NCBI GenBank assembly: GCA_023423405.1
Contig: JAFAFR010000099.1
Coordinates: 16,293 to 48,292, forward strand
Direction: 5' to 3'
DNA from: Bacteroidota bacterium
GTDB taxonomy: Bacteria > Bacteroidota > Bacteroidia > Chitinophagales > Chitinophagaceae
Length of the DNA: 32,000 nucleotides
This document shows, piece by piece, positions 2,899 to 32,000 of this stretch. Both the position numbers and the translations under genes were made by a program. Every line of letters starts with the position of its first letter. Positions within the stretch are counted from its first letter, which is position 1. Below the pieces are notes generated by a model that saw nothing but the letters and a program-made list of their open reading frames with translations, searched no databases and had not been told where the DNA came from.

Positions 2899-2985
2899 TA
2901 AGTTGCAGTTTGCCGGCCCCTTCAAAAAAAACTTCTTCTTTCTTTGGTAAAACCCCATCAGTTCCTCCCTCTTTATTCCTGAGCC

Positions 2986-4032: not shown

Positions 4033-4053
4033 CTAAACCTTTAATGCTGCTAT

Positions 4054-7458: not shown

Positions 7459-7487
7459 TACTATTTCTAACGAATCAATTTTTGGCA

Positions 7488-14172
<6,685 letters not shown>

Positions 14173-16484: not shown

Positions 16485-16514
16485 GCAATACCCCCGTTAA
16501 AACAAAATTTGCAT

Positions 16515-17417
16515 ATGGAAAAACAAACAGCCACACGCGCAGCCGTGCTGGAAGGCCTCATGCGCCGCTACCGGGAACGGGTACCCGATGTGAACGCCAT
16601 CATCCTCGCGATGATCAAGGAAGGCATTATCCGACAGGCGGAAGACATCGAGAACGACCACATTGCCTTCCGCACGCTGGGTGTGTCACATCTTGGGATC
16701 GCTTCCCTCGAAAAAATATTCCTGCACCTCGGTTACGAAAAAAAGGATTACTATTCTTTTGAAGAAAAGAAACTGAACGCCTATTGGTATGCGCCCCCGG
16801 TGCCCGGCGAGCCGCGCATTTTTGTCAGTGAATTGCGTGTGCAGGAACTAGGGCCTGCTGCACAGGAAATTGTTCGGAAATACACCGCAGGCATTCAGCA
16901 GGATCCGGTAGACCAACTCAACCTCGACGATGCGGCGCAGGTGGACGAATTCCTGCACAGCGGCCTCTGGGAAACGCCTTCACTGGCCGATTACAGCCTG
17001 CTGCTGGAGGAAAGTGAGTACGCAGCCTGGGTGATCTTCAACCGTTATTATCTGAACCATTTTACCATCAGCGTCCATAATCTTAAAGAGGGCTATAACA
17101 CCATCCCGGCCTTTAACACGTTCCTGGAAAATGCAGGATTTGTATTGAACGACGCGGGCGGAAAAATTAAAACCAGTCCCGACGGTAACCTGCTGCAGAG
17201 CGCCACAATAGCGAAAAAGATCCGGGCTTCTTTTGCGGGCGGCGAAGAACAGCTCATTCCAGGGTCTTACGTGGAATTTGCAGAACGCAAAGTATTACCG
17301 GCTTTCCGCGAATTGCCCGGAGACACCATTGAACGCAGCCATCGCCGCGAGGGTTTTGAAGCAGCCAATGCCAACCGTATTTTTGAAAGCACGTACCGCG
17401 GGCAAACAGAACGCTGA
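16515..17417 (+). CDS. DUF1338 family protein (2-oxoadipate dioxygenase/decarboxylase HglS / YdcJ family, short form)
   Basis: Candidate His/His/Glu metal triad contexts NDHIAFRTLG, YYLNHFTISV and GSYVEFAERK, as in DUF1338. The ORF-track start 16509 is TTG. The first ATG is at 16515, about 30 nt after the fusion gene. Confidence 0.75.
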   Translation: MEKQTATRAAVLEGLMRRYRERVPDVNAIILAMIKEGIIRQAEDIENDHIAFRTLGVSHLGIASLEKIFLHLGYEKKDYYSFEEKKLNAYWYAPPVPGEPRIFVSELRVQELGPAAQEIVRKYTAGIQQDPVDQLNLDDAAQVDEFLHSGLWETPSLADYSLLLEESEYAAWVIFNRYYLNHFTISVHNLKEGYNTIPAFNTFLENAGFVLNDAGGKIKTSPDGNLLQSATIAKKIRASFAGGEEQLIPGSYVEFAERKVLPAFRELPGDTIERSHRREGFEAANANRIFESTYRGQTER

Positions 17418-18904: not shown

Positions 18905-19633
18905 ATGTTTCGCCACCAGGGAAAAACCCGCACCTACGCCCACAACCTTCGCATCGCCTCTTTATTGTCTTTTGTAGCAGGACTCGTGAATGTGGTTGGC
19001 TTCCTGGCGGTGCAACGGCTTACCACCAATGTTACCGGGCACTTTGCCTTTTTTGTGGATGAAGTGTTCAAGCTGAATTTCTGGGGTGGACTGATCTACT
19101 TTTTTTACATCTTCTTTTTCTTCCTGGGTTCTTTTGTATCGAGTATGCTCATCGAGATCATGCAGCGCAAAAACGAGCAGTATATTTACGTGGTGCCCAC
19201 GCTCATAGAATGTATCATTCTTTTTTGCATCGGCGCCGTTGGTATGGAACTGGCATTTTCCGATCCTGACCTGATTGCATTCAGCTTGCTGTTTGCGATG
19301 GGATTACAGAACTCGCTCGTCACTACCATTTCGAGCGCTACCGTACGCACAACACACCTCACCGGCCTGTTCACCGATCTGGGCATCGAATTGTCGCAGT
19401 TGTTCTTTTACCGCGAGCCAGGGCAGAAGAAGAAATTGCTATCCTCCATCCGACTGCGGTTCACCATTATCAGTTTCTTTTTTATTGGCGGTGTGCTGGG
19501 TGGTGTGGCTTATGCGCGGTTCCAGTTGCATACCCTGCTCTTCGGTTCCCTGTCCCTGTTAGTGGGATTGATCTACGACAACATCAAATACCGCTTCATC
19601 CTGCTGCGCCGAAGGATAAAAGGCAATGGCTGA
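18905..19633 (+). CDS. YoaK/DUF1275-family inner-membrane protein
   Basis: Multi-TM hydrophobic protein carrying the family-typical LLSFVAGLVNVVGFLAVQRLTTNVTGHF and VRTTHLTGLFTDLG segments. Confidence 0.75.
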   Translation: MFRHQGKTRTYAHNLRIASLLSFVAGLVNVVGFLAVQRLTTNVTGHFAFFVDEVFKLNFWGGLIYFFYIFFFFLGSFVSSMLIEIMQRKNEQYIYVVPTLIECIILFCIGAVGMELAFSDPDLIAFSLLFAMGLQNSLVTTISSATVRTTHLTGLFTDLGIELSQLFFYREPGQKKKLLSSIRLRFTIISFFFIGGVLGGVAYARFQLHTLLFGSLSLLVGLIYDNIKYRFILLRRRIKGNG

Positions 19634-20407
19634 TCATTTCATCACCGAACTGATCCCCGCTTCAAGATGCTGCAGGAACAGCGGTTCGCTGTAGCTCTCC
19701 TTCGTGTGTCCGAGGGCGGTATAAAAAACTTTTCCGCCTTCAAAATCCTGGTACCAGGCCGCAGGATGATGGCCGTTCATATTACCACCCTGGTAAGAGC
19801 TTTCATCCAGCAGCAGCAACACTTTCACCTGGTCGTTGAAGTTTTTGAAATTATACCATTCATCTTTGCGGCTCCAGTCCTGCGGCAGCATGGCGGTGGC
19901 GGCATGAGCAAGAGGCGTTTTGTGCAGCGTGGCCGTTTGCTGTGCAGGATGACTGTCGAACCAGCCGCCCATCATGCGGTTGTACCAGGGCCAGTCGTAT
20001 TCACAGTCGGTGGCTGCATGCACGCCGGCAATACCGCCGCCTGCATGCACATAATCCTGCAATGCTTTTTCTCCTTTCCCATCAAATACATTGCCCGTGT
20101 TATTGAGCAGCACAATGGCAGAAAAACCGGCGATCCTGTTATCGGTGAAATAACTGGTGTCTTCCGTGGCAACCACTTCCCAGTGATTACGAACGCCCAT
20201 GGCTTTGATTGCAGCGATACCGTCGGGAATGGACTCGTGGCGAAACCCGCGCGTGGCGGAGAACACCAGCAGTTTTTTACCAGCGCCGGCAATGACGCCG
20301 GACGCTGAACCCGTATCCTTATCCGCACCGGAAGAATGATTCTTTGAACTCTTACAGGCAGCGAGGCCCAGCAGGGCCATCATTACAAAACAACAATGCT
20401 TGAACAT
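19634..20407 (-). CDS. ThuA-domain protein (trehalose-utilisation ThuA family), lipoprotein
   Basis: Lipoprotein signal MMALLGLAAC. ThuA-like motifs are LVFSATRGFRHESIP, GGGIAGVHAA, HPAAWYQ and GGKVFYTALGH. It abuts the convergent YoaK gene with a 0-nt gap. Confidence 0.8.
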   Translation of the reverse strand: MFKHCCFVMMALLGLAACKSSKNHSSGADKDTGSASGVIAGAGKKLLVFSATRGFRHESIPDGIAAIKAMGVRNHWEVVATEDTSYFTDNRIAGFSAIVLLNNTGNVFDGKGEKALQDYVHAGGGIAGVHAATDCEYDWPWYNRMMGGWFDSHPAQQTATLHKTPLAHAATAMLPQDWSRKDEWYNFKNFNDQVKVLLLLDESSYQGGNMNGHHPAAWYQDFEGGKVFYTALGHTKESYSEPLFLQHLEAGISSVMK

Positions 20408-20423
20408 GGCAGCAACAGCATTT

Positions 20424-20452
20424 AAAAAAAGAGGCTGCCCTCAGCAGCCTCT
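20424..20452 (-). terminator. Rho-independent terminator downstream of the DUF1080 gene
   Basis: 9-bp stem AGAGGCTGC (20430-20438) / GCAGCCTCT (20444-20452) with a 5-nt loop. On the minus strand it is followed by TTTTTTT (plus-strand A-run 20424-20430). It lies between the DUF1080 stop (20458) and the ThuA start (20407). Confidence 0.6.
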
Positions 20453-20457
20453 TCCGG

Positions 20458-21201
20458 TTATAATTTGCGGATCTTGATGTTCTTGAACCAAACGGCATTG
20501 CCGTGGTCCTGCAGGGCAATATGGCCGCCATGGGCTGTGCCGAAATCGGACTGGTTTTTGAACTTGCTCGCAGCGATGAGGGCCTTCCAGTTATCGTCCC
20601 ACATGGTAGTGCTCACCGTGGTTACGCCGTTCAGTTTGATCTCTAGCTGGTTGCCTTTCTGGATGATTTCGCAATGGTTCCATTCGCCCACGGGCTTCAC
20701 CGGTTCTACGGTGGACGCGATGAGGTCGTAGAGATTCGCTGCGCGGTGTTTGTAAATTTTTCCATCGGGATGGCCATCGTTGTCCAGCACCTGGATCTCC
20801 GGACCGGTCAACCATACAAACTCGTATTTCGGCCGGTCGTCCACCACGTTGATGATGATGCCGCTGTTGCCTTTGGGAGAAATTTTCCAGTCGAGCGCGA
20901 GGTGATAATTTTCAAATACGCCATCGGAAACAATGTCTCCGCCTCCACGCACCTGCCAGCCATCTTTTTTGGCATCGTCAAGGAAAATGGCGCCGTCCTG
21001 CACCTGCCAGGCCGATCCTACTTCTGTTTTTCCATAGGTATGCCAGCCCTTGAAACTACTGCCATCGAAGAGCAGTTCCCAGCCATCGGCTTTTTCTTTG
21101 GAAGAAAGTGTATTGTCGGCCACAGCCTGCGCTTTTTTGGAACCGGAACAGGCAACCAGTCCAATAGCGACCAGGGTTGCCAGGGAAAGGGTTCTCAGCA
21201 T
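20458..21201 (-). CDS. DUF1080 protein (3-keto-disaccharide hydrolase family, PF06439), lipoprotein
   Basis: Lipoprotein signal LVAIGLVAC. Family pattern: GWELLFDGSSFKGWHTYG, WQVQDGAI, FENYHLALDWKISPKGNSGI, EIQVLDN, IALQDHGNAVWFKNIKIRKL. Confidence 0.85.
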   Translation of the reverse strand: MLRTLSLATLVAIGLVACSGSKKAQAVADNTLSSKEKADGWELLFDGSSFKGWHTYGKTEVGSAWQVQDGAIFLDDAKKDGWQVRGGGDIVSDGVFENYHLALDWKISPKGNSGIIINVVDDRPKYEFVWLTGPEIQVLDNDGHPDGKIYKHRAANLYDLIASTVEPVKPVGEWNHCEIIQKGNQLEIKLNGVTTVSTTMWDDNWKALIAASKFKNQSDFGTAHGGHIALQDHGNAVWFKNIKIRKL

Positions 21202-21202
21202 T

Positions 21203-21598
21203 TTATTGGTTTTTAAGGGTAAGAATGTATTTCACCATGGTTTTGGCATCGTCTTCGCTCAGTTGCGGGTGCGGGGTCATGGGCACGGTTCCCCATACGC
21301 CACTGCCGCCTTTGATGATCTTTGAAGCAAGATCAGCAACTACGGCATCGCTGGCTTCGTATTTTTTGGCCACTTCCTGGTAAGAGGGACCAATGGCTTT
21401 TTCGTTCACTTTGTGACAGGTAAGGCAATCGCTGCCGGCAATCAGTTCTACTCCTTTCTCCTCGTCTGCCGAAGGGGCGGCCGGTTGCTCGGTAGCCGGC
21501 GCAGCACTGGTGTTATCGCTCGCTTTTTTCTCGGAACCGCCGTTTCCGCAGGCAATCGCCATTGCACTGATGCCTGCAAGGATGAAATACTTCTTCAT
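21203..21598 (-). CDS. Monoheme class-I c-type cytochrome, lipid-anchored with flexible linker
   Basis: Single CLTCH heme motif (21413-21427, verified by reverse translation) with a distal Met context GTVPMTPHP. Lipobox MAIAC (Cys17), followed by an Ala/Pro/Glu-rich linker (SEKKASDNTSAAPATEQPAAPSADEEKG). Only 1 nt separates it from the DUF1080 gene. Confidence 0.85.
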   Translation of the reverse strand: MKKYFILAGISAMAIACGNGGSEKKASDNTSAAPATEQPAAPSADEEKGVELIAGSDCLTCHKVNEKAIGPSYQEVAKKYEASDAVVADLASKIIKGGSGVWGTVPMTPHPQLSEDDAKTMVKYILTLKNQ

Positions 21599-21609
21599 GA
21601 TAGTTGTTT

Positions 21610-22662
21610 TTATATGCCAAGAATTTTTTTATTGAAAGCTTCGTCGGAACCGGTTCCCGCGAAGTCGTCGAATGCTTTTTCGGTTACACGTATGATGTGA
21701 TCACGGATAAAGATACCACCTTCTGCCGCACCGTCTTCCGGATGTTTCAGGCAGCATTCCCATTCCATTACTGCCCAGCCCTTGAAATCGTAAGCGGCCA
21801 GTTTGCTGAAAATGGAGCCGAAGTCCACCTGCCCATCACCCAGCGAACGGAAGCGCCCGGCCCGGTCGATCCAGCCCTGGTAGCCGCCGTACACGCCCTG
21901 GCGCCCGGTGGGATTGAATTCTGCATCTTTCACATGGAACATGCGGATCCTTTCGTGGTAGATGTCGATGTACTCCAGGTAGTCCAGGCACTGCAGTACA
22001 AAATGCGAGGGATCATATAACAGGCAGGCGCGGGGATGGTTGTTCACTTCTTTCAGGAACATTTCATAACTCACGCCGTCGTGCAGGTCTTCGCCCGGAT
22101 GGATTTCATAACAGAGATCCACACCCGAAGCATCGAACACATCGAGAATGGGCTTCCAGCGTCGTGCCAGTTCCCGGAAACCGGTTTCCACCAGTCCCGC
22201 GGGCCGCTGCGGCCAGGGATATACGGTATGCCATAACAAGGCCCCGCTAAAAGTGGCGTGGGCATTGAGTCCCAGGTTTTCGGAAGCTTTGGCGGCATAT
22301 TTCAGTTGCTGCACGGCCCAGTCGGTACGGGCGCTGGCATTGCCGCGCACCGCTTCCGGCGCAAAGCCGTCGAACAGTTCATTGTAGGCGGGATGCACCG
22401 CTACCAGTTGTCCCTGCAGGTGCGTGCTGAGCTCGGTAATTTCAAGGCCGCAGTCGGTTACAATTCCTTTGATCTCATCGGCATAGGTTTTACTTTCCGC
22501 CGCCAGTTGAAGATCGATGCAGCGCGGATCCCAGGTGGGGATTTGCACACCTTTGAATCCCAGCGATTCGGCCCAGAGGCAAATGGATTGCAAATTGTTG
22601 AAGGGAGCTTTGTCTCCCAGGAACTGGGCGAGAAAAATGCCCGGCCCTTTTAATGTTGTCAT
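21610..22662 (-). CDS. Sugar phosphate isomerase/epimerase (xylose-isomerase-like TIM barrel), cytoplasmic
   Basis: 350 aa with no signal peptide. TIM-barrel family segments are GFKGVQIP, CYEIHPGEDL, MFHVKDAEF and GWAVMEWE. Confidence 0.8.
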   Translation of the reverse strand: MTTLKGPGIFLAQFLGDKAPFNNLQSICLWAESLGFKGVQIPTWDPRCIDLQLAAESKTYADEIKGIVTDCGLEITELSTHLQGQLVAVHPAYNELFDGFAPEAVRGNASARTDWAVQQLKYAAKASENLGLNAHATFSGALLWHTVYPWPQRPAGLVETGFRELARRWKPILDVFDASGVDLCYEIHPGEDLHDGVSYEMFLKEVNNHPRACLLYDPSHFVLQCLDYLEYIDIYHERIRMFHVKDAEFNPTGRQGVYGGYQGWIDRAGRFRSLGDGQVDFGSIFSKLAAYDFKGWAVMEWECCLKHPEDGAAEGGIFIRDHIIRVTEKAFDDFAGTGSDEAFNKKILGI

Positions 22663-22680
22663 CGTAACAGGGTTTTGTTA

Positions 22681-23838
22681 TCAAACATCGAATGCCGTCC
22701 ACTTCAGATCGGATGCATTGCTTTTTACTACATTCTCAATAAAGGCCATGCCCCGGATGCCGTCGTCGATGCCGGGAAAATCGAGCCATTCCTCTGGCAC
22801 TTTTTTCCCATCCAGGCGGGCGCGCAGGGTATGCGCAAAATTCATATAGAGGTTGGCAAAAGCTTCGAGGTAACCTTCCGGATGGCCAGGCGGGGTGCGG
22901 GTTCCGGCCTTTGCGAAAGAGCTGAGGTAGTCGGCCCCTGCACGCAAAACCTGCGCGGGCTGGTCGAGCCATTTCAGCACCAGGCTGTTGGCATCTTCCT
23001 GCCGCCATTCGAGTCCGCCTTTTTCTCCATACACGGTAACGCGTACATTGTTTTCTTCACCGGCAGCTACCTGGCTGGCATACAGCAAACCGGTGACACC
23101 ATTGGTGAATTTCAGCAACACCATGCCATCGTCGTCGAGCTTGCGCTGCGGCACATAAATATTCAACTCTGCGCAGAGATGGGTCACTGTTTCGCCCGTC
23201 AGGTATTCGGCCATATTAAAAGCGTGCGTGCCTATATCGCCCATGCAGCCGGAGATGCCGCTGCGGCCGGGATCGGTGCGCCATTCGGCCTGCTTGTATT
23301 GTGTGCCTTCGCGGTAGGTGCTGAGCCAGCCCTGCGGGTACTGCACATATACTTTGCGGATCTTACCCAAACGCCCATTCGCAATCACCTGCCGCGCTTC
23401 CTTGATCATGGGATAACCCGTATAGGTATGCGTAAGACAAAAAATGGCGCCGGTTTTTTCAATAACGGCTTTCAGGTCCTTCGCTTCTTCGAGCGTGAAG
23501 GTGGCGGGCTTGTCGAGCACCACGTGAAAGCCATTCTCCATGGCCATTTTAGCGGGACCATAGTGCACATGGTTGGGCGTAACAATGGCCACAAAATCCA
23601 TGCGCTTGTCTGCCGGCAGGGTCTTCTCCCTTTCGATCATTTCTTTGTAATCGCCGTACACCCGGTCTTCCGGAAGATAGAGCGCTGCCCCGCTGGCCTT
23701 CGATTTTTCTGCATTGCTGCTGAAGGCGCCGCATACCAGTTCGATCTCTCCATCCATGGCGGCCGCAATGCGATGCACGGCGCCAATGAACGCATCCTTA
23801 CCGCCGCCGATCATGCCCATTCTGAGTTTCCTGCTCAT
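22681..23838 (-). CDS. Gfo/Idh/MocA-family NAD(P)-dependent oxidoreductase, cytoplasmic
   Basis: N-terminal Rossmann motif LRMGMIGGGKDAFIGAVH, the family-typical VLDKPATFTLEEA (EKP-like) and a C-terminal alpha/beta domain. No signal or Tat motif. Confidence 0.9.
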   Translation of the reverse strand: MSRKLRMGMIGGGKDAFIGAVHRIAAAMDGEIELVCGAFSSNAEKSKASGAALYLPEDRVYGDYKEMIEREKTLPADKRMDFVAIVTPNHVHYGPAKMAMENGFHVVLDKPATFTLEEAKDLKAVIEKTGAIFCLTHTYTGYPMIKEARQVIANGRLGKIRKVYVQYPQGWLSTYREGTQYKQAEWRTDPGRSGISGCMGDIGTHAFNMAEYLTGETVTHLCAELNIYVPQRKLDDDGMVLLKFTNGVTGLLYASQVAAGEENNVRVTVYGEKGGLEWRQEDANSLVLKWLDQPAQVLRAGADYLSSFAKAGTRTPPGHPEGYLEAFANLYMNFAHTLRARLDGKKVPEEWLDFPGIDDGIRGMAFIENVVKSNASDLKWTAFDV

Positions 23839-23845
23839 GTAACAT

Positions 23846-24511
23846 TTATTTATTGAAGCTGATGCATTCTTTCAGCTCCTTGTCGGTATAGGCGAGCTTG
23901 TATTGTTTCAGCACATCGTCGGGAACGCCATTCCACTGGTTGGGTTGGTTGCCGGCATAACCAATGTCTTTTACGCCCATTTCAGAAGTATAAAAACCGG
24001 TGCAGGTGAGGTCGCGCATGAGGTTGAAAAAAGCCACGCCCTGCCGCATATTGGGCTTTGCTTTTTCAGGATAGGCGATCTGGTCCACCATATTGATGCG
24101 GTCCGAAGCGCTGCAATCCTTAAAGGCTTTCCCGAACTGCTGCAGGCATTGCAGGTCGAGCCAGCGCAGTCCGCCGCGCATGGGCGTCTGGTGCTCGGGC
24201 ATATCCTTTACAATGAACTCAATGAACTCGGGTACTTTGGCTTCACTGGCGCTGCCGCTTACCTCGTCCTTGGGAATGATGATATCGGCCAGCAGGGTGA
24301 TGGTGGTCATTTCGGCCTCCGAGAAAAACTGTTCGGCGTTGATGCGGTCGAAATGCGCTTTTTCTTCGGGCATGCGGTCGGGACCTTCGGGATGGGGCTG
24401 GGCAGCCGCGGTTTCCGGCGCTTTTTTCTCCGGTTCCTTACAGGCATCGAGCAGCAGGCCGGTAGATAAAGATCCGAGTGCAATGGCCTTGATTGATTTC
24501 CTTCTATCCAT
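23846..24511 (-). CDS. Gluconate 2-dehydrogenase subunit-3-family small subunit (Tat-signal partner of the GMC flavoprotein)
   Basis: N-terminus MDRRKSIKAIALGSLSTGLLLDAC has a twin-Arg motif plus a lipobox Cys. It lies 16 nt downstream of the GMC gene. It is a paralog of 30464-31033, sharing ..IIP.. and FYTSE/YFTSE segments. Confidence 0.8.
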   Translation of the reverse strand: MDRRKSIKAIALGSLSTGLLLDACKEPEKKAPETAAAQPHPEGPDRMPEEKAHFDRINAEQFFSEAEMTTITLLADIIIPKDEVSGSASEAKVPEFIEFIVKDMPEHQTPMRGGLRWLDLQCLQQFGKAFKDCSASDRINMVDQIAYPEKAKPNMRQGVAFFNLMRDLTCTGFYTSEMGVKDIGYAGNQPNQWNGVPDDVLKQYKLAYTDKELKECISFNK

Positions 24512-24527
24512 CGTATGAGCGTTGGGG

Positions 24528-26267
24528 TTAGATGTTCTGTTTTTTGAGCTGGTCGATCAGGTATTCGCTGGCGCGCATGGCGAGCGCCAGGATGGTCCAG
24601 GTAATATTCTTATCGGCCTGTGACACAAAGGCGGCGCCATCCATCACGAATAAGTTCCTGCAATCGTGCGCCTGGTTCCACTTGTTAAGGGCCGATTGTT
24701 TGGGATCGTTGCCCATGCGCGCGGTGCCCGCTTCGTGGATGATCTTGCCGGGTGCGTGCAGCCCGTAATTGTTCTCCGGACCGTCGTCGCCGCCCCAGGT
24801 TACAATGGCGCCCATATTGTGCAGGATCTCCTTAAAGGTTTCCTTCATGTGTTTGGCCTGGTTGATTTCGTGCTGGCTCCATTTCACGTTGAACTTGAGC
24901 ACGGGGATGCCGTATTTGTCCACCGTGGTGGGATCGATGAGCGCCGTGTTTTCGCGGAAGGCAACGGCCTCACCGCGACCCGCCATGCCCACGCCGGCGC
25001 CGAAGAAATAACGCTGGTCTTCTTTCAGCGAAGCGCCGTAGCCGCCGGCTTCTTTTTTCTTTCCGTTCACCAGGAATTTTCCGTTCATGCTCTGGATGCC
25101 CATGCCGAAACCATAAGCGGGCTGGCCCATGCCGCCCCAGTATTCAATATGGTAACCGCGGGGGAAATCGAGCTTTTTGTTATCGAGCCACCAGGGACTG
25201 TATACGTGCATGCCGCCCACACCATCTTCGTTGTAGCGCTTGCGGCCCATGAGCTGGGGCAGGATGCCGCCAATATCGGCGCCGGTGGAATCATGGAGAT
25301 AACGCCCTACCACGTCGCTGCTGTTGGCAAGCCCGTTGGGATGACGCTCCGATTTGGAGTTGAGCAGTATGCGTGAGCTTTCGCAGGCCGATGCGGCCAG
25401 GATCACCACTTTGCCGTTCACCTGGTATTCCTGCAGGTCTTCCTTGTTCACATAGGAAACGCCGGTGGCGAGCCCCTCTTTATTGGTGAGCACTTCGCGC
25501 ACCATGGCGTTGGGGAATACCTGCACGTTGCCGGTTTCGATGGCGGGTTTGATGAGCACGCTCGAAGAAGAGAAATCGGCGTACACCTGGCAGGAGCGGC
25601 CGCACTGCGCACAGAAGAAACAGGAACCTCGCGAGTCGTTGATCTTTTTGGTGAGAATCGACAGGCGCGAAGGTATGACGGTAACGCCCGACTGCGTGGC
25701 GGCGTTTTTGATCATCAGCTCATGCAGGCGTGGCCTTGGCGGCGGAAGAAAAACGCCGTCGGGTTCATTTTCCAGTCCCTCCACGGTTCCGAAAATGCCC
25801 ACCAGCTTATCTACGCGATCGTAATAAGGTTTGATATCGTCGTAGGAGATGGGCCAGTTTTCACCGAGACCATCGATGCTTTTTCTTTTAAAATCCTTGG
25901 GGCCGAAGCGAAGTGAAATACGGCCCCAGTGGTTGGTGCGTCCACCGAGCATACGTGCGCGAAACCAGTCCCACTGCGTACCTGCGGCCTTGGTGTAGGG
26001 CTCGCCGTCAATATCCCAGCCCCAGTAGCAGGCGTCGAAATCGCCGAAGGGCCTGAACCGGGTGGCGGCGCCCCTCCGGGGCGATTCCCAGGGATTTTTG
26101 AGTTGGGTTACATTCTTCTGCGGATCGAAGAGGGGGCCTGCTTCCATCAGGGCTACCTTGATACCGGCATTGGCCAGCGTGTACGCTGCCATACCGCCAC
26201 CTGCTCCCGATCCGACAATGATCACATCATACTGGGTTGGCTGTTTTTTGATCTGGAGATCTCCCAT
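24528..26267 (-). CDS. GMC-family FAD-dependent oxidoreductase, catalytic subunit (paralog 1)
   Basis: FAD motif YDVIIVGSGAGGGMAAYTLA and C-terminal GMC region HEAGTARMGNDPKQSALN..FVMDGAAF. No signal peptide. Internal Cys cluster CFFCAQCGRSC (25590-25622). Confidence 0.9.
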   Translation of the reverse strand: MGDLQIKKQPTQYDVIIVGSGAGGGMAAYTLANAGIKVALMEAGPLFDPQKNVTQLKNPWESPRRGAATRFRPFGDFDACYWGWDIDGEPYTKAAGTQWDWFRARMLGGRTNHWGRISLRFGPKDFKRKSIDGLGENWPISYDDIKPYYDRVDKLVGIFGTVEGLENEPDGVFLPPPRPRLHELMIKNAATQSGVTVIPSRLSILTKKINDSRGSCFFCAQCGRSCQVYADFSSSSVLIKPAIETGNVQVFPNAMVREVLTNKEGLATGVSYVNKEDLQEYQVNGKVVILAASACESSRILLNSKSERHPNGLANSSDVVGRYLHDSTGADIGGILPQLMGRKRYNEDGVGGMHVYSPWWLDNKKLDFPRGYHIEYWGGMGQPAYGFGMGIQSMNGKFLVNGKKKEAGGYGASLKEDQRYFFGAGVGMAGRGEAVAFRENTALIDPTTVDKYGIPVLKFNVKWSQHEINQAKHMKETFKEILHNMGAIVTWGGDDGPENNYGLHAPGKIIHEAGTARMGNDPKQSALNKWNQAHDCRNLFVMDGAAFVSQADKNITWTILALAMRASEYLIDQLKKQNI

Positions 26268-26492
26268 CGTCGGAAAAATATTGGTGTTGTAAGAGGGCTA
26301 AATTAAATGATTAATACTATTCGAAAATTGAAAATCCGCTGCTTAGCAGTATTAAAAAATCTGAACAAAAAGGTAAAAAAGGATTAACCCCTTTGGAAAG
26401 ATTGCATTTTTTTTGACGATCCTTAGCGGAAGTGTAGAAAATACACATGAATCCCATAAATTTATGCCGCTCTGATAGTATAAACCAACGAT

Positions 26493-27791
26493 ATGCAAGC
26501 CAACATCAACCGTAACCAACTCTTTGTAGCAAGCTGCTTAGCTCTTTTGGTAACCTCTCTTTCCTTTGGCATCCGCGCCGGATTGCTTGACACCTGGAAA
26601 CACGAATTCGGGCTCACCCAGGAACAGGTCAGCATCATTACTTCTACCGCTTTCTGGGGATTTCCGCTGGCCATTATCATTGGTGGCATGGTGGTGGATA
26701 TCATTGGCATGAAAAAGCTTCTGATCACCGCTGCCGTTTTTCATACCCTCGGCATTGTGCTGACCATTACGGCAACCGGCTTCTGGTCGCTTTTTATATC
26801 CACCCTGCTGATAGGCCTGGGCAACGGAACGGTGGAAGCGGCCTGTAACCCACTGGTAGCAAGCCTTTACACCGATAAGAAAACCACCAAGCTCAACCAT
26901 TTCCATCTCTGGTTCCCGGGCGGCATCGTGATCGGCACGCTGATCGTGCGTTTCCTGGGCGTACAGATACCTGATACGGCCTACCTGCAGAACTGGAAAT
27001 TCCTGGTAGGGATCATGCTGATTCCCACCCTGCTCTATGGTTATTATTTCGCCAGGCTGTCCTTCCCCGTTACGGAAAGAGTGGCCAGCGGCGTTTCCAC
27101 CCGCGAAATGTATGCTTCCCTGCTGCACCCGCTTTTCCTGCTCATGATCGTACTGATGCTGGGCACCGCCATTACCGAACTCTTTACCGGTCAGTGGATC
27201 GATGTATTGCTGAAAAATGTGACCGACAATGCACTGCTTCTGCTGACCATTGAAACCGGTGTAATGGTGCTGGGCCGCGCTTTTGCGGGACCGGTGGTGG
27301 GCAAATTTTCCCCACAGGGCGTGCTGCTGATGTCGGCCATTGTATCGGCCATTGGCCTGTACATGCTGGGACATTTTACCGGCAATATGCTTTTTGTAGG
27401 CGCGCTTATTTTCGGCATCGGGGTATGTTATTTCTGGCCCACCATGATCGGTTTTGTGGCCGAAAACCTTCCCAAAACAGGAGCGGTAGGCCTCAACCTG
27501 ATGGGCGGCGCCGGCATGTTCGCCGTTTCTCTTTACATGATCTTTATGGGTGGATATTACGATAAGCTCATCGCCGGCAAACTGCCTGCCGGTGCAGATA
27601 TCGGCGCCTACAATGCAGCGCCTGCCGGATCCGATCTGGCCAATGCGCTGGCGGAAGCAAAAAAAGCAGCGGGACCAGAAATCATCAATGCCACGCTTAC
27701 CATTCCCATCATTCTTACCATTGCTTTTGCAGGCCTCTTTATTTATATGCGCGGCAGGGGTAACCAGGTGAGAATGGCTTCTACACATTAA
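26493..27791 (+). CDS. MFS sugar transporter (FucP / glucose-galactose-transporter-like)
   Basis: 432 aa with about 12 hydrophobic helices. It is the first gene of the plus-strand operon and is divergent from GMC paralog 1. The subfamily call is tentative. Confidence 0.8.
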   Translation: MQANINRNQLFVASCLALLVTSLSFGIRAGLLDTWKHEFGLTQEQVSIITSTAFWGFPLAIIIGGMVVDIIGMKKLLITAAVFHTLGIVLTITATGFWSLFISTLLIGLGNGTVEAACNPLVASLYTDKKTTKLNHFHLWFPGGIVIGTLIVRFLGVQIPDTAYLQNWKFLVGIMLIPTLLYGYYFARLSFPVTERVASGVSTREMYASLLHPLFLLMIVLMLGTAITELFTGQWIDVLLKNVTDNALLLLTIETGVMVLGRAFAGPVVGKFSPQGVLLMSAIVSAIGLYMLGHFTGNMLFVGALIFGIGVCYFWPTMIGFVAENLPKTGAVGLNLMGGAGMFAVSLYMIFMGGYYDKLIAGKLPAGADIGAYNAAPAGSDLANALAEAKKAAGPEIINATLTIPIILTIAFAGLFIYMRGRGNQVRMASTH

Positions 27792-27798
27792 TAGCATA

Positions 27799-28722
27799 AT
27801 GAAGAAATATAAAAACAGCAGGCGCTCCGCCGTGAAGCAGATGCTGGTCGCGGGCGCCGGAATGGCCCTGGCGCCGCAACTTGGATTCGGATCGCGCACC
27901 TCCTCCGCACTGGCCGAAGCTGCTCCAAACCCGGCTCCACCTGCCGAAAAGATCAACATGAAAGGAAACATCAAACATTCGGTCTGTCGCTGGACCTATG
28001 GTTTTTTACCACTCGACGAACTCTGCGCCCAGGCAAAATCCATCGGCATCAGCGCCATTGACCTGGTAGGTCCCAAAGAGTGGGATACGCTCAAAAAATA
28101 CGGCCTCGATTCTTCCATGTGCAACGGCGCCGAGATCAACCTGACCGACGGTTTCTGCCATACCCAATACCACAATACGCTCGAAAAGAACTACGCCGAC
28201 ATGATACCGCTGGTGGCGAAGGCGGGTTATAAAAACCTGATCTGTTTCAGCGGGAACCGGAAGGGACTCGATGATGAAACCGGGCTGAAAAATTCGGTAG
28301 CCGGACTGAAACGGGTGATCGGCCTGGCAGAAAAGCACGGCGTGGTGCTGACCATGGAACTGCTGAACAGCCGGGTAGACCATACCGATTACATGTGCGA
28401 CCGTTCCGCCTGGGGCATCGAACTGGTGAAGCGCCTGGGCTCTTCCAATTTCAAGCTGCTGTTCGATATCTATCACATGCAGATCGATGAAGGTGATATC
28501 ATCCGGTCCATCCAGAACAACCACGAATACTTTGGACACTACCATACCGGAGGCAACCCGGGTCGCCATGAGATCGATGAAACGCAGGAATTGTATTATC
28601 CTGCCATCATGAAGGCGATTGTGGCCACCAAATTCAAGGGCTATGTAGCGCAGGAATTCATTCCTTCTGCCCCCGACAAAATCGCTTCCCTGCGGAAGGC
28701 GGTTGAACTGTGTGATGTTTGA
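27799..28722 (+). CDS. Xylose-isomerase-like TIM-barrel protein (hydroxypyruvate-isomerase-like) with Tat signal, periplasmic
   Basis: N-terminus MKKYKNSRRSAVKQMLVAGAGMALAP has a twin-Arg motif plus an h-region. TIM-barrel segments are GISAIDLV, VLTMELLN, FDIYHMQIDEGD and GHYHTGG..GRHE. It starts 7 nt after the MFS gene. Confidence 0.8.
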   Translation: MKKYKNSRRSAVKQMLVAGAGMALAPQLGFGSRTSSALAEAAPNPAPPAEKINMKGNIKHSVCRWTYGFLPLDELCAQAKSIGISAIDLVGPKEWDTLKKYGLDSSMCNGAEINLTDGFCHTQYHNTLEKNYADMIPLVAKAGYKNLICFSGNRKGLDDETGLKNSVAGLKRVIGLAEKHGVVLTMELLNSRVDHTDYMCDRSAWGIELVKRLGSSNFKLLFDIYHMQIDEGDIIRSIQNNHEYFGHYHTGGNPGRHEIDETQELYYPAIMKAIVATKFKGYVAQEFIPSAPDKIASLRKAVELCDV

Positions 28723-28748
28723 TTAACCTGAAAAAGCAATAAACGATT

Positions 28749-30434
28749 ATGGCCGAAAACACTTTTGACGCAATTGTGGTTGGTTCCGGGATCAGCGGCG
28801 GATGGGCTGCCAAGGAACTTACTGAAAAGGGACTCAAAGTGATCATGCTCGAAAGAGGGCGCAACGTGGAACACGTTAAAGATTATGTGAGTGCCAACAA
28901 ACATCCCTGGGACTTCCCGCACCGCGGGGGCCGCACGCAGGAAATGATCAAGGACTACCCAGTGCTGAAAAGAGACTACCCGCTCAATGAAACCAACCTC
29001 GATTTCTGGGTGAATGAAAAGGACTGTCCCTATACCGAAGTGAAACGCTTCGACTGGTTCCGCGGATACCAGGTGGGTGGCCGCTCGCTGACCTGGGGCC
29101 GCCAGAGTTATCGTTGGAGTGATGTAGACTTTGAAGCTAATGCAAAAGACGGCTTCGGTGTCGACTGGCCCATCCGGTACAAGGATATTGCGCCCTGGTA
29201 CAGCCATGCCGAAAAATTTGCCGGCGTGAACGGCAGCAAGGATGGACTGCAGCAATTGCCCGATGGCGATTTTCTGCCCGCCATGGAAATGAACTGCGTG
29301 GAGAAGGATGTGAAAACGCGGATCGAAAAAGCCTATGGCGGTAAGCGCGCCTTCATCATGGGCCGCAGCGCCAACCTCACGGCGCCCATCAACGGCCGTA
29401 CGAATTGCCAGTACCGCAACAAGTGCTGGCTGGGATGTCCCTTCGGTGCGTATTTCAGTACGCAGTCGGCCACCCTGCCCGCAGCCATGGCAACGGGTAA
29501 CCTCACGCTGCGTCCTTTCAGCATCGTTACCAAGATCCTGTACGATAAAGACACGAAAAAAGCGAAAGGAGTGGAGGTGCTGGATGCCGAAACCAATAAG
29601 ACCTATGAGTACTATGCAAAGATCGTTTTCCTGAATGCCTCGGCGCTGAACTCTACCTGGGTGCTCATGAACAGCGTCACCGACATCTGGCCCGACGGCC
29701 TCGGCAGCAGCAGCGGTGAGTTGGGCAACAACCTGATGGACCACCACCTGGGCGTAGGCGCCAGCGGCACCGTGGAAGGATACGACGACAAATACTATTT
29801 TGGCCGCCGTCCCAATGGCATCTATATTCCGCGTTACCAGAACCTGCCCTGGGGTGAAGCCAGGCGCGATTACGTCCGTGGTTTCGGTTACCAGGGCGGC
29901 GCCAGCCGTTCGGGCTGGAGCCGCGAAATTCCGGAACTGAATATTGGCGTGGAACTGAAAGAAGCCCTGAGCGAGCCGGGAGGCTGGTCGATGGGTATGG
30001 GTGGTTTCGGAGAGATACTGCCTTACCACGAAAACAAAGTGACGCTCGATAAAACGCGCAAGGACAAATGGGGATTGCCGGTGCTGGCCATCGACTGTGA
30101 GCTGAAAGAGAACGAGAAAAAGATGCGGGTGGATATGATGAACGATGCGGCTGAAATGCTGGAGCAGGCAGGCGTGAAAAACGTGCACAAGTGGGACGGC
30201 GACGGCACACCCGGCCGCGGCATCCATGAAATGGGCACGGCGCGTATGGGTCGCGATCCCAAAACATCGGTGCTCAACGGCAACAACCAGGTATGGGATG
30301 CGAAGAACGTGTTTGTGACCGACGGGGCCTGCATGACCTCCGCCGCCTGCGTGAACCCTTCGCTCACGTACATGGCGCTTACAGCGCGCGCCGCCAGTTT
30401 TGCGGTGGAAGAACTGAAAAAAGGAAACCTATAA
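28749..30434 (+). CDS. GMC-family FAD-dependent oxidoreductase, catalytic subunit (paralog 2)
   Basis: FAD motif FDAIVVGSGISGGWAAKEL and C-terminal region HEMGTARMGRDPKTSVLN..FVTDGACM. No signal peptide. Cys cluster CQYRNKCWLGCP (29406-29441). Confidence 0.9.
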   Translation: MAENTFDAIVVGSGISGGWAAKELTEKGLKVIMLERGRNVEHVKDYVSANKHPWDFPHRGGRTQEMIKDYPVLKRDYPLNETNLDFWVNEKDCPYTEVKRFDWFRGYQVGGRSLTWGRQSYRWSDVDFEANAKDGFGVDWPIRYKDIAPWYSHAEKFAGVNGSKDGLQQLPDGDFLPAMEMNCVEKDVKTRIEKAYGGKRAFIMGRSANLTAPINGRTNCQYRNKCWLGCPFGAYFSTQSATLPAAMATGNLTLRPFSIVTKILYDKDTKKAKGVEVLDAETNKTYEYYAKIVFLNASALNSTWVLMNSVTDIWPDGLGSSSGELGNNLMDHHLGVGASGTVEGYDDKYYFGRRPNGIYIPRYQNLPWGEARRDYVRGFGYQGGASRSGWSREIPELNIGVELKEALSEPGGWSMGMGGFGEILPYHENKVTLDKTRKDKWGLPVLAIDCELKENEKKMRVDMMNDAAEMLEQAGVKNVHKWDGDGTPGRGIHEMGTARMGRDPKTSVLNGNNQVWDAKNVFVTDGACMTSAACVNPSLTYMALTARAASFAVEELKKGNL

Positions 30435-30463
30435 CCAATACACCTAACCGAAAATATTTTTTC

Positions 30464-31033
30464 ATGAAAAGAAGAGAAGCCCTTTCGGCTGTAGCGGTCA
30501 TCCTGGGAGGAAGCATGGTAGGCTCCAGTCTTTTTCTGACTGGTTGTAAATCAGAACCGAAGCGCACCAGCTTAACGGATTTTACGCCTGATGAGATCGC
30601 CTTCCTGGATGAAGTGGCCGAAACCATTATTCCCGCTACGGATACGCCCGGCGCCAAAGCGGCACAGGTGGGTGCCTTTATGAAAGTGATGGTGACCGAT
30701 TGTTATGAAGAAAAGAACCAGCAGGTATTTGTAGAGGGACTGAAAAAGCTGGAGGAATCCAGCAAGCAGAAATTCAGCAAAGGCTTTATGGACCTGGACG
30801 CCAGCCAGAAAAAGGAATTGCTGACGGATATCGACAAAGAAGCCAGAGAATACCAGAGGAACAAGAAGGACGGGGATCCCAATCACTATTTTAAGATGAT
30901 GAAAGACCTCACGCTGCAGGGCTATTTTACGTCGGAGCCCGGGGCTACCAAAGCCCTGCGTTATGTGGCGGTTCCCGGAAAATACGAAGGCTGCATTCCT
31001 TATAAGAAGGGCGACAAAGCCTGGGCAACCTGA
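30464..31033 (+). CDS. Gluconate 2-dehydrogenase subunit-3-family small subunit (Tat-signal partner, paralog 2)
   Basis: The ORF track starts at 30293, inside the GMC gene. ATG 30464 gives MKRREALSAVAVILGGSMVGSSLFLTGC, with a twin-Arg motif plus a lipobox Cys, matching the N-terminus of paralog 23846-24511. Confidence 0.8.
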   Translation: MKRREALSAVAVILGGSMVGSSLFLTGCKSEPKRTSLTDFTPDEIAFLDEVAETIIPATDTPGAKAAQVGAFMKVMVTDCYEEKNQQVFVEGLKKLEESSKQKFSKGFMDLDASQKKELLTDIDKEAREYQRNKKDGDPNHYFKMMKDLTLQGYFTSEPGATKALRYVAVPGKYEGCIPYKKGDKAWAT

Positions 31034-31064
31034 GAAGGGGAGATAACAAATTGTAATAATGGAA

Positions 31065-31088
31065 AAGAGCTGCGAGGCTCTTTTTTTT
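31065..31088 (+). terminator. Rho-independent terminator after the plus-strand GMC operon
   Basis: Stem AAGAGC (31065-31070) / GCTCTT (31077-31082) with a 6-nt loop, running into T8 (31081-31088). It lies 32 nt after stop 31033. Confidence 0.55.
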
Positions 31089-31101
31089 GTGGGCTGTAAA
31101 T

Positions 31102-31129
31102 AAAAAACCCATCCGCGGGGATGGGTTTT
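31102..31129 (-). terminator. Rho-independent terminator of the H1-like gene (hairpin could act bidirectionally)
   Basis: Perfect 9-11 bp stem AACCCATCC (31106-31114) / GGATGGGTT (31119-31127) with loop GCGG. On the minus strand it is followed by TTTTTT (plus-strand A-run 31102-31107). It lies about 18 nt downstream of stop 31147. Confidence 0.7.
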
Positions 31130-31146
31130 CAAACAAATAGTTTGTA

Positions 31147-31542
31147 TTAAGCGCCGGCTTCTGGCGTAGCAGGCGTATCGATGATGGGCAGTTCAGGAGC
31201 TACCGGTGCGGGAGCTGCTTTTTTTACTGCCCTTCTAACTGCCTTTTTTACTACTGCTTTTTTAACGGCTTTTTTTACCACTGCTTTTTTGATTGCCTTT
31301 TTTACAACGGCTCTTTTAACGGCTTTCTTCGCCGCTTTTTTTACCACCGCTTTTTTAACAGCCTTCTTCACTGCTTTTTTAGCAACGGCCTTTTTTACCA
31401 CTTTTTTAGCGGCGGCTTTTTTTACTACTTTTTTAACAGCTGCTTTTTTAGCGGCTTTTTTGGAAGCTGCCTTCTTCGGGGCGGCTTTTTTTACTGCCTT
31501 TTTGGCCGGAGCTTTTTTAGCGGCCTTCTTTTTTGTGGGCAT
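31147..31542 (-). CDS. Lys/Ala-rich histone H1-like (Hc1/AlgP-like) nucleoid-associated protein
   Basis: 131 aa made almost entirely of degenerate KKAxKKAV repeats, with a short non-repeat C-terminus (PELPIIDTPATPEAGA). It has its own terminator and an AT-rich upstream region, including the palindromic TAAATTTA at 31595-31602. Confidence 0.7.
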   Translation of the reverse strand: MPTKKKAAKKAPAKKAVKKAAPKKAASKKAAKKAAVKKVVKKAAAKKVVKKAVAKKAVKKAVKKAVVKKAAKKAVKRAVVKKAIKKAVVKKAVKKAVVKKAVRRAVKKAAPAPVAPELPIIDTPATPEAGA

Positions 31543-31921
31543 ATTAATTTGTGATTTAATGAGTGAGAAATAATGGGTTGCATTGAATGATTTCTAAATT
31601 TACACTGCTTGTTAATAAATACCAATATGTCAGGGTTTTTTTTATAGCATATTTTTAAAAAGTGGATATCCTGTTTATTTCCCGTCCGGAGCCGCCTCGG
31701 GTCCTTCCTGGCAGCCCGGGCGGACGATGGTTCCGGCGCTGCTGGTTGCCCCTTTTTTAGCCGGCGGGTATCCCCGGTTTTAGCCAAAAGGCGACCTGGA
31801 GAAGCCGGGGCTTCCGCTTGCCGGGGTGCGCTCCCTTTTGCCCGGTTCCCTGGGGGCTTCAGGGGGTAAAGGCCGGTCGCCACGACCCGCCCCGGCTTTG
31901 CCATTTGTTTTATTTTTTTCT

Positions 31922-31929
31922 TTACCTTT
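31922..31929 (+). promoter_or_regulatory. Candidate Bacteroidota -7 promoter box (TAnnTTTG) for a gene starting at the window edge
   Basis: TACCTTTG matches TAnnTTTG exactly. An ATG at 31973 opens MADLKFQRN.. and runs off the window. That is too short to call a CDS. Confidence 0.35.
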
Positions 31930-32000
31930 GCGCTCCAAAATGGCTTTGGCCTAACTTTTTTAACATACTACAATGGCAGACTTAAAATTTCAGAGGAATT

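Follow-up and report, generated by a model that had tools for sequence, protein, structure and literature searches.

A putative cytochrome c-linked gene cluster for oxidative, non-hydrolytic glycoside utilisation in a Chitinophagaceae genome

Gene content and predicted compartments

We characterized a gene cluster in a 32-kb stretch of DNA (32,000 nucleotides, in the following "the window", to which all coordinates refer unless another locus is named) from a Chitinophagaceae genome. The nearest named relatives of the host are Flavihumibacter species. The cluster comprises eleven genes at positions 19634–31033 in two divergent operons, which are densely packed, with intergenic gaps of 1–50 bp inside either of them, and are separated by a 225-bp spacer (Table 1). 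A first-pass annotation, made from the letters of the window alone, had listed the eleven genes, the two operons and the spacer, and all of them were found in place. Its family calls held as well: every Pfam assignment lies well over the curated cut-off, with E-values ranging from 1.6e-71 (ThuA) to 1.6e-08 (cytochrome c), such that chance is ruled out as a concern. None of the NCBIfam equivalog models approaches its cut-off for any cluster protein, which explains the vague annotation of such loci. For small subunit 2 the true start is the ATG at 30464 and not the mechanical open reading frame start at 30293.

Table 1. Features of the cluster in the order of their window coordinates.
Feature	Position	Strand	Family or match
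ThuA	19634-20407	-	PF06283, E 1.6e-71
DUF1080 lipoprotein	20458-21201	-	PF06439, E 2e-48
Cytochrome c	21203-21598	-	PF00034
TIM-1 (TIM barrel 1)	21610-22662	-	PDB 8ro4_A
Gfo/Idh/MocA	22681-23838	-	A. tumefaciens Gfo oxidoreductase
Small subunit 1	23846-24511	-	PF13618, E 4.1e-36
GMC-1	24528-26267	-	GMC_oxred_N + GMC_oxred_C
Divergent control region	26268-26492	.	225 bp
MFS	26493-27791	+	Pfam MFS_1 + Sugar_tr
TIM-2 (TIM barrel 2)	27799-28722	+	PF01261
GMC-2	28749-30434	+	GMC_oxred_N + GMC_oxred_C
Small subunit 2	30464-31033	+	PF13618, E 7.4e-43

The compartment of each product was predicted from N-terminal motifs and from their conservation in orthologues. Small subunit 1 begins with MDRRKSIK...LLDAC and small subunit 2 with MKRREALS...FLTGC. 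The twin-arginine motif is present in 73 of 74 orthologues of the former, and for the latter both the twin-arginine motif and the lipobox are found in 12 of 13. TIM-2 carries an N-terminal NSRRSAVK, whose twin arginines occur in all 14 orthologues, with R8 and R9 at least 90% conserved across 31 homologues. Export by the twin-arginine translocation (Tat) pathway would fit an enzyme that depends on a metal and takes it up prior to export. Lipoboxes were found in the cytochrome c (AIAC; 13 of 14 orthologues in one set and 38 of 46 in a larger set), in the DUF1080 protein (LVAC; 12 of 16) and in ThuA (LAAC), for which five of five orthologues have a signal peptide and two of five a lipobox. The two GMC proteins begin directly at their GxGxxG motif, and signal motifs are absent from their orthologues (0 of 80 for GMC-1, 0 of 14 for GMC-2). 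Likewise, the Gfo/Idh/MocA protein (in the following Gfo) starts at its Rossmann motif without a signal, and the N-terminus of TIM-1, also without signal peptide, runs straight into the catalytic fold. The division of the cluster between periplasm and cytoplasm that the first-pass annotation had proposed is well founded on these conserved motifs, though still a prediction.

A GlycDH-type dehydrogenase and the enzymes encoded around it

Oxidative glycoside cleavage was described by Bitter et al. 2023 (PMC10628242) for an operon of Agrobacterium tumefaciens, in which the glycoside dehydrogenase GlycDH, a flavoenzyme, and a TAT subunit are encoded together with AtOGE, a beta-eliminase, with AtHYD, a putative hydratase, and with a Gfo oxidoreductase. 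Together with reduced nicotinamide adenine dinucleotide (NADH), AtOGE, AtHYD and the Gfo oxidoreductase were used to convert 3-keto-phlorizin to glucose in a one-pot reaction, the authors calling the evidence for the roles of AtHYD and Gfo "preliminary" (PMC10628242). The reference protein sequences used here were taken from Supplementary Table 6 of that paper and were machine-read, such that the identities given below are slightly underestimated.

[quoted passage not shown] It is an orthologue of GlycDH and the predicted catalytic subunit, carrying flavin adenine dinucleotide (FAD), of a glycoside 3-dehydrogenase. GMC-2 is the only one of the two GMC proteins that is closely related to an enzyme with demonstrated C3 oxidation of glycosides, the identity of GMC-1 to GlycDH being 30%. 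GlycDH itself has a broad specificity and oxidises also C-glycosides (PMC10628242). GMC matches on Rhizobium plasmids with 33% identity were ruled out as GlycDH, its sequence being the orthologue of GMC-2. In the Xanthomonas sacchari locus described below the GMC protein is 72% identical to GMC-2 and 73% to GlycDH. The cysteines C220, C226 and C230 of GMC-2 show the C-x5-C-x3-C spacing of a 3Fe-4S cluster in the same columns as the cysteines of GMC-1, and H493 and N536 form a His/Asn catalytic pair that aligns with the pairs of GMC-1 and of the Burkholderia glucose dehydrogenase BcGDH. At the position of the BcGDH histidine that binds FAD covalently GMC-2 has a threonine (T115). Small subunit 2 would be the Tat "hitchhiker" lipoprotein that takes GMC-2 to the periplasm; it adjoins the GMC-2 orthologue in 23 of 25 surveyed loci (see below).

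The solved structures that come nearest to the two GMC proteins are BcGDH (6A2U) and Gluconobacter fructose dehydrogenase (7W2J). These enzymes share with the cluster the GMC subunit, the Tat hitchhiker, the 3Fe-4S cysteines and the His/Asn pair. In BcGDH, the covalent FAD ligand is His105, and a 3Fe-4S cluster held by Cys212, Cys218 and Cys222 relays the electrons of FAD on to the cytochrome subunit. This kinship, together with the name of the Pfam family of the small subunits, "gluconate 2-dehydrogenase subunit 3", could be taken to mean that the two GMC enzymes work as gluconate, sorbitol, fructose or glucose-1 dehydrogenases like those of acetic acid bacteria, which make keto-acids or keto-sugars without cleaving glycosides. 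We consider this very improbable. BcGDH and fructose dehydrogenase have low identity to the GMC proteins (E 1e-33 to 1e-44), compared to the 68% identity between GMC-2 and GlycDH, and differ from glycoside dehydrogenases in substrates and regiochemistry. Moreover, their membrane-bound three-haem cytochrome subunit is absent from the cluster, which has a monohaem lipoprotein instead, and the partners that are conserved together with GMC-2 are the hydratase, the reductase and the lyase of a 3-keto-glycoside pathway.

TIM-1 matches PDB entry 8ro4_A, deposited as a 2-hydroxy-3-keto-glucal hydratase, over its full length (residues 1–350, E 1.9e-178) and is 69% identical to the machine-read AtHYD sequence. 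The origin of 8RO4 was deduced from the deposited name and from its match to the AtHYD sequence; we presume Kastner et al. 2024 to be the source of both 8RO4 and 8RR2. TIM-1 is an AtHYD orthologue and a predicted cytoplasmic 2-hydroxy-3-keto-glucal hydratase. An assignment as IolE was ruled out by an NCBIfam score of 59 bits against a cut-off of 290. The hydratase is unusually conserved across phyla, TIM-1 being 74–81% identical to proteins of Hymenobacter, Azospirillum, Croceicoccus and Sinorhizobium, and homologues were found in 349 plasmid records, many of them from Phaeobacter, Pantoea and Paracoccus. In an alphaproteobacterial locus on a Croceicoccus marinus plasmid (L002, 4978–6392) the hydratase, Gfo and a GMC/small subunit pair stand together with a TIM barrel that neighbours a DUF6379 gene, and with a GH3, ThuA and a GPH symporter. 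The pairing of TIM barrel and DUF6379 there resembles, as we take it, the subunits of C-glycoside deglycosidases, and this locus may be a C-glycoside-capable variant.

Gfo aligns over its full length with the oxidoreductase of the A. tumefaciens operon ("Gfo Oxo"; 44% identity, 288 bits) and matches PDB 3v5n (E 3e-112). It would act as a cytoplasmic, NAD(P)H-dependent 3-keto-glucose reductase. The DUF1080 lipoprotein matches the solved BT2157-type proteins 8tda, 8rr2, 9fbe and 3osd at about E 1e-41. Although the family was taken for a hydrolase in the first-pass annotation, its members are 1,2-lyases of 3-keto-alpha-glucosides as well as glucal hydratases (Nasseri et al., bioRxiv 10.1101/2024.03.25.586180). 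By this kinship the cluster protein is probably a periplasmic enzyme of the BT2157/AL2 type, with the activities of a 3-keto-alpha-glycoside 1,2-lyase and of a glucal hydratase.

The cytochrome c is a class-I monohaem lipoprotein of about 130 residues with CLTCH at residue 58. All 46 orthologues contain exactly one CXXCH, and a methionine-ligand motif, GVWGxVPMTPHP, is conserved. It would serve as electron acceptor of the dehydrogenases, and its make-up suggests a lipid-anchored shuttle to a terminal oxidase. The MFS transporter is a candidate importer of 3-keto-glucose or 2-hydroxy-3-keto-glucal.

Which genes belong together was determined from two surveys. The GMC-1 survey covered 80 genomes with orthologues of 76–86% identity, the GMC-2 survey 80 metagenomic loci with orthologues of 75–89% identity. 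Counts refer to the loci with at least 8 kb on either side, i.e. 41 for GMC-1 and 25 for GMC-2. Near GMC-2, Gfo was found in 22 loci, the hydratase in 20, TIM-2 (beside the GMC-2 orthologue) in 19, the cytochrome c in 18, the MFS transporter in 16 and DUF1080 in 13; GMC-1 with small subunit 1, and likewise ThuA, were present in three. Around GMC-1, small subunit 1 adjoined in 40 of the 41 loci, followed by Gfo, hydratase and DUF1080 (11 each), GMC-2, small subunit 2 and TIM-2 (10 each), cytochrome c (9), MFS (7) and ThuA (3). GMC-1 loci with the full set keep the divergent architecture of the window across several genera, and the order GMC-1, small subunit 1, Gfo, hydratase, cytochrome c, DUF1080 is kept with short gaps in Flavihumibacter, Flavipsychrobacter, Lacibacter, Pinibacter and Hydrotalea. 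The same core is found on a Hymenobacter plasmid and in Xanthomonas sacchari, in the latter with a LacI regulator alongside. Both of these loci include the cytochrome c and have a "nucleoside permease"-type transporter in place of the MFS protein.

The conserved unit thus consists of about eight genes around GMC-2, namely MFS, TIM-2, GMC-2, small subunit 2, Gfo, hydratase, cytochrome c and DUF1080, and the counts indicate that the pathway is built around GMC-2. GMC-1 with its small subunit, and likewise ThuA, were added in particular lineages. Of the composite eleven-gene cluster that had been proposed, the GMC-2 core is conserved together, whereas the GMC-1 pair and ThuA are not part of it.

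Taken together, we consider it highly probable that the locus serves glycoside utilisation of the GlycDH/LacABC type, which takes glucose-type sugars off glycosides and disaccharides through oxidation, elimination, hydration and reduction and not through hydrolysis. Orthology to measured enzymes supports the scheme of the first-pass annotation, i.e. periplasmic C3 oxidation with electrons passing to cytochrome c, non-hydrolytic cleavage, import and cytoplasmic reduction.

The second dehydrogenase pair, TIM-2 and the missing eliminase

Several observations weigh against this reading. First, the small monohaem cytochrome takes the place of the three-haem subunit of BcGDH-type complexes, and direct electron transfer to it is assumed. 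Second, GMC-1 is linked to the pathway by adjacency in a minority of genomes and by a Pseudoalteromonas relative of 47% identity. Its orthologues are mostly solitary, with 30 of the 41 loci lacking pathway genes nearby, and a search of 32 loci for a recurrent neighbour of the solitary GMC-1/small subunit 1 pairs found none, the best family occurring in 8. Third, no AtOGE-like gene was found in the whole window by tblastn with AtOGE and the AtOGE-like protein of locus L008 as queries (best E 0.31). AtOGE-like TIM barrels with a canonical Tat signal (e.g. MSTRRTFLKQ) are present in 18 of the 25 GMC-2-anchored loci, and AtOGE-like genes in 10 of the 11 GMC-1-anchored pathway loci, the closest relatives of the window included. 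In these closest relatives the gene lies just beyond ThuA/DUF1080 (L008, 16809–17537; L006, 11665–12393; L086, 12671–13417), whereas the corresponding flank in the window holds DUF1275, DinB and a methyltransferase. Consequently, no enzyme is assigned to the cleavage of beta-glycosides, except if TIM-2, DUF1080 or a gene at another place in the genome accomplishes it. Finally, TIM-2 lacks a specific relative with a known function, and its structural matches discriminate little, with Foldseek E-values that are flat (5e-12 to about 7e-9) across many TIM-barrel families. Presumably it is DUF1080, perhaps along with TIM-2, that carries out the elimination within the cluster.

TIM-2 was rejected as an AtOGE-type beta-eliminase. 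Against AtOGE it gave a blastp E-value of 5.8 and an hhalign probability of 0.3%, and the AtOGE structure 8BVK was absent from a PDB profile search (E up to 1) as well as from the 50 best Foldseek matches. Moreover, 17 of the 25 loci contain both TIM-2 and an AtOGE-like gene, such that the two probably have different functions. An assignment as hydroxypyruvate isomerase was ruled out, too (90 bits against an NCBIfam cut-off of 353). The structure comparison used an AlphaFold2 (AF2) model with a mean predicted local distance difference test (pLDDT) score of 81. Its top matches were 3ngf, YcjR (6wn6) and ketose 3-epimerases, the same proteins that the PDB profile search returned (E 6.6e-6 for E. 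coli YcjR). YcjR 6WN6 ranked third in Foldseek (E 2.5e-11, TM-scores of 0.66 for the query and 0.76 for the target, 18% identity), with 3ngf and ketose 3-epimerases scoring the same or better.

E. coli YcjR is a 3-keto-D-glucoside 4-epimerase, and TIM-2 as predicted would likewise act on 3-keto-glycosides. In contrast to YcjR, TIM-2 carries a signal for Tat export, and many TIM-barrel families score nearly as well, such that the likeness is a lead and not an assignment. TIM-2 is a metal-type, xylose-isomerase-like TIM barrel that probably acts on periplasmic 3-keto-glycosides; as to its activity, we would guess at 4-epimerisation of 3-keto-glycosides or at a lyase reaction with another specificity. 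Tat-exported barrels of the TIM-2 type are very abundant, are annotated as "hydroxypyruvate isomerase family" and accompany GlycDH orthologues across phyla. If TIM-2 were a 4-epimerase, 3-keto-galactosides would be turned into substrates for gluco-specific lyases.

GMC-1 belongs to a clade different from that of GMC-2, with identities of 33% to GMC-2 and 30% to GlycDH. Its C216, C222 and C226 align with the 3Fe-4S ligands of BcGDH, its H511 and N554 with the catalytic pair of GMC-2 and BcGDH, and its H113 with the covalent-FAD histidine His105. Orthologues of 76–86% identity are widespread in Chitinophagaceae and Sphingobacteriales. Small subunit 1 is the predicted Tat hitchhiker partner of GMC-1.

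One may ask whether two independent systems merely lie side by side. The GMC-2 pathway would then be real, and GMC-1 with small subunit 1 would be an unrelated, self-contained periplasmic dehydrogenase, e.g. for a free sugar, a polyol or a non-sugar alcohol, that happens to head the Gfo operon. The predominance of solitary GMC-1 pairs and their lack of a recurrent neighbour speak for such an arrangement, as do the distance of GMC-1 from both GlycDH and GMC-2, its presence in only three of the 25 GMC-2-anchored loci, and the covalent-FAD histidine that it shares with the glucose 1-dehydrogenase BcGDH and that GMC-2 lacks. Where the two systems do co-occur, however, the gene order from GMC-1 to DUF1080 is kept with short gaps in several genera. 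Furthermore, the Pseudoalteromonas relative is embedded among Gfo, hydratase, MFS, DUF1080 and a TIM barrel without any GMC-2-type gene, and the Hymenobacter copy sits between polysaccharide utilisation loci and LacI regulators. On balance we regard two unconnected systems as unlikely, albeit as a serious contender. Since the Pseudoalteromonas relative lies in a pathway cluster of its own, a role of GMC-1 in the same chemistry is plausible, and within a single glycoside pathway GMC-1 with small subunit 1 is probably a second dehydrogenase of like architecture that widens the substrate range.

In other lineages a different paralogue holds the second place: many metagenomic loci (L115, L119, L146, L153, L160, L167) carry, immediately upstream of the GlycDH-type pair, a GMC protein about 49% identical to GMC-2 together with a small subunit of its own. 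The gene order there, all collinear, is GMC, small subunit, Gfo, hydratase, MFS, cytochrome c, TIM-2. Doubling of the dehydrogenase pair is thus met with repeatedly, and it probably broadens the range of substrates. Near the solitary GMC-1/small subunit 1 pairs, 5 of 32 loci contain a Tat-signal Gfo/Idh/MocA protein (e.g. L029, 12584–14026), whose N-terminus reads ...RRQFIRDASLSLAAF..., like that of periplasmic glycoside 3-dehydrogenases of the BT2158 type.

The ThuA-domain lipoprotein is a rare accessory gene, and its closest PDB relatives, 4jqs and 4e5v, are weak matches. An analogy to ThuA/ThuB had been drawn in the first-pass annotation and does not hold: ThuA has a lipoprotein signal, and the sole Gfo of the cluster has none and is the orthologue of the Agrobacterium reductase. 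A ThuAB-like 3-dehydrogenase formed by ThuA and Gfo is ruled out by their differing predicted compartments and by the orthology of Gfo.

For TIM-2 and the GMC-1 pair one can further ask whether both represent undescribed activities, TIM-2 being a new periplasmic 3-keto-glycoside enzyme, for instance a 4-epimerase that feeds galactosides to the gluco-specific lyases or a lyase of novel specificity, and GMC-1 with small subunit 1 having a substrate or regiochemistry distinct from GlycDH. We put forward this joint claim tentatively, giving it appreciably less than an even chance.

Proposed pathway, surroundings and related systems

From these assignments a sequence of steps can be proposed. [quoted passage not shown] In the periplasm it would oxidise the C3 hydroxyl of a glycosyl residue, an activity deduced from its membership, by orthology, in the GlycDH family. 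[quoted passage not shown] DUF1080, judged by its family, would eliminate the aglycone from 3-keto-alpha-glycosides to yield 2-hydroxy-3-keto-glucal and perhaps hydrate it. TIM-2 would also work on periplasmic 3-keto-glycosides, with a beta-specific lyase and a YcjR-like 4-epimerase as the alternative activities. The MFS transporter may then import the glucal or 3-keto-glucose. In the cytoplasm, TIM-1 would hydrate the glucal to 3-keto-glucose and Gfo would reduce the latter to glucose with NAD(P)H, both roles following from family membership by orthology.

The window also contains a polysaccharide utilisation locus upstream of the cluster (2248–14172), with an extracytoplasmic function (ECF) sigma factor, a FecR anti-sigma factor, SusC, SusD, a GH2 beta-galactosidase and a GH63/MGH1-like glycosidase. 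With the beta-galactosidase locus 8 kb upstream, the cluster might be thought specialised for one unusual substrate class, i.e. levoglucosan or other anhydrosugars, C-glycosides, or 3-keto-galactosides from lactose. The YcjR-like fold of TIM-2 would fit a funnelling of galactosides. However, five unrelated genes separate the two loci and the flank is not kept in relatives, such that a functional link is at most putative. C-glycosides are among the substrates of GlycDH, but the specificity of this enzyme is broad and AtOGE leaves 3-keto-C-glycosides uncleaved (PMC10628242). In contrast to the Croceicoccus locus, the cluster moreover lacks the subunits of a C-glycoside deglycosidase (DgpB/C, or CarB/C with DUF6379). 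As for anhydrosugars, levoglucosan dehydrogenase is the best NCBIfam match of Gfo, yet it reaches only 108 bits against a cut-off of 650, by which Gfo is ruled out as such an enzyme. We therefore hold a specialised cluster to be improbable and retain a pathway for O-glycosides and disaccharides in general as the preferred reading.

The divergent control region is of similar size in 12 of 13 related loci (188–317 bp), the spacer of L068 being 1594 bp long. An alignment with these 13 spacers revealed two conserved boxes. One, TAAATTTA, belongs to the palindrome CATAAATTTATG (26455–26466) and precedes the MFS start by about 30 nt; the other, TAnnTTTAr-like, is found upstream of GMC-1. Both boxes resemble, in our own reading, the -7 promoter element described for Bacteroidota. 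The spacers of Lacibacter-type relatives (L013, L024, L050) contain an operator palindrome of the LacI type, TGCAAACGTTTGCA, which is missing from the spacer of the window. The cluster itself contains no regulator gene; LacI genes adjoin the Xanthomonas and Hymenobacter loci. Counts of sigma-70-like sites (4, compared to 9.0 ± 3.0 in shuffled sequences, with Bacteroidota promoters lying outside the coverage of the scan) and of terminator-like sites (23, compared to 15.6 ± 4.5) were uninformative. An Rfam scan of 19000–32000 matched no RNA element.

Beyond the polysaccharide utilisation locus, the stretch 14181–17417 encodes a 767-residue fusion of an APH phosphotransferase with a class-III aminotransferase, followed by a 2-oxoadipate dioxygenase/decarboxylase of the HGLS family. 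This pair recalls hydroxylysine or lysine catabolism, in which a kinase with phospho-lyase is combined with 2-hydroxyglutarate synthase. Just downstream of small subunit 2, a 131-residue open reading frame on the minus strand (31147–31542) has a sub-threshold histone-H1-like match as its sole family signal. It is gene-called also in the matching Logan contig L003, beside an EF-G-like gene.

The cluster is a typical member of an already described pathway and reveals no new kind of system. Four of the five components of the Agrobacterium/Rhizobium operon have orthologues here, GMC-2 (68%), small subunit 2, TIM-1 (69%) and Gfo (44%), with the TAT subunit and small subunit 2 sharing the Pfam family and the Tat motif. 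The logic of oxidation, elimination, hydration and reduction is also the same. In contrast to that operon, the cluster lacks AtOGE within the window, is split into two divergent operons and adds DUF1080, the Tat-exported TIM-2, the monohaem cytochrome c, the MFS transporter, the second GMC pair and ThuA.

A second group of relatives comprises LacABC of Caulobacter crescentus, with the DUF1080 protein CCNA_01705, and its counterparts in Pedobacter, Indibacter and Algoriphagus. By description these have, as here, a periplasmic GMC dehydrogenase with accessory subunits, and what their neighbourhoods further have in common with the cluster is DUF1080 and a transporter, along with a reductase and two TIM barrels of the "sugar epimerase" kind. 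In Caulobacter and Pedobacter, LacABC-type dehydrogenase and DUF1080 genes are required for growth on lactose, salicin and other glycosides, and synteny of LacA and DUF1080 is found in Indibacter and Algoriphagus (Price et al. 2022, PMC9007349). According to Liu et al. 2021 (PMC8121099), homologous clusters of Pedobacter sp. GW460-11-11-14-LB5 and Echinicola vietnamensis matter for the catabolism of disaccharides and glycosides. The LacABC-type dehydrogenase is described as cytochrome c-dependent (PMC8121099), and fitness phenotypes were reported on lactose, salicin, raffinose and other glycosides (PMC9007349, PMC8121099). The cluster differs from these in its cytochrome, the monohaem lipoprotein of about 130 residues. 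A third relative is found in Bacteroides thetaiotaomicron (BT2156-BT2159) and Alistipes (AL1-3), where the same DUF1080 family takes part in periplasmic chemistry via 3-keto intermediates. There the oxidant is a Tat-exported Gfo-family enzyme, whose tightly bound NAD is recycled by a 3-keto sugar, whereas here a flavoprotein would pass electrons to cytochrome c. Such a flavoprotein-cytochrome c route suits an aerobe, in contrast to the NAD-bound type of Bacteroides (Liu et al. 2021, PMC8121099). The statement of the first-pass annotation that clusters of this kind are essentially uncharacterised in aerobic Bacteroidota has to be corrected in view of the published fitness data for Pedobacter and Echinicola (PMC8121099, PMC9007349), the pathway being established also in Agrobacterium (PMC10628242) and in Bacteroides/Alistipes (bioRxiv 10.1101/2024.03.25.586180).

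Oxidative, non-hydrolytic cleavage of glycosides was worked out only in 2021–2024, in Agrobacterium and gut Bacteroides. The characterised dehydrogenase, hydratase and reductase have clear orthologues in the window, which presents an aerobic, cytochrome c-linked version of this route from Chitinophagaceae. TIM-2, GMC-1 and ThuA are the three proteins of chief remaining interest in the cluster. For the family of such loci a rule of annotation emerges: the core tracks the GlycDH-type GMC-2, and Tat-signal proteins of the "hydroxypyruvate isomerase family" as well as small monohaem cytochromes belong to it, while variable modules are formed by the second GMC pair, by ThuA and by the AtOGE-like eliminase. 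Such a rule aids the reading of thousands of loci that are mis-annotated as "choline dehydrogenase", "gluconate 2-dehydrogenase subunit 3" or "sugar phosphate isomerase".

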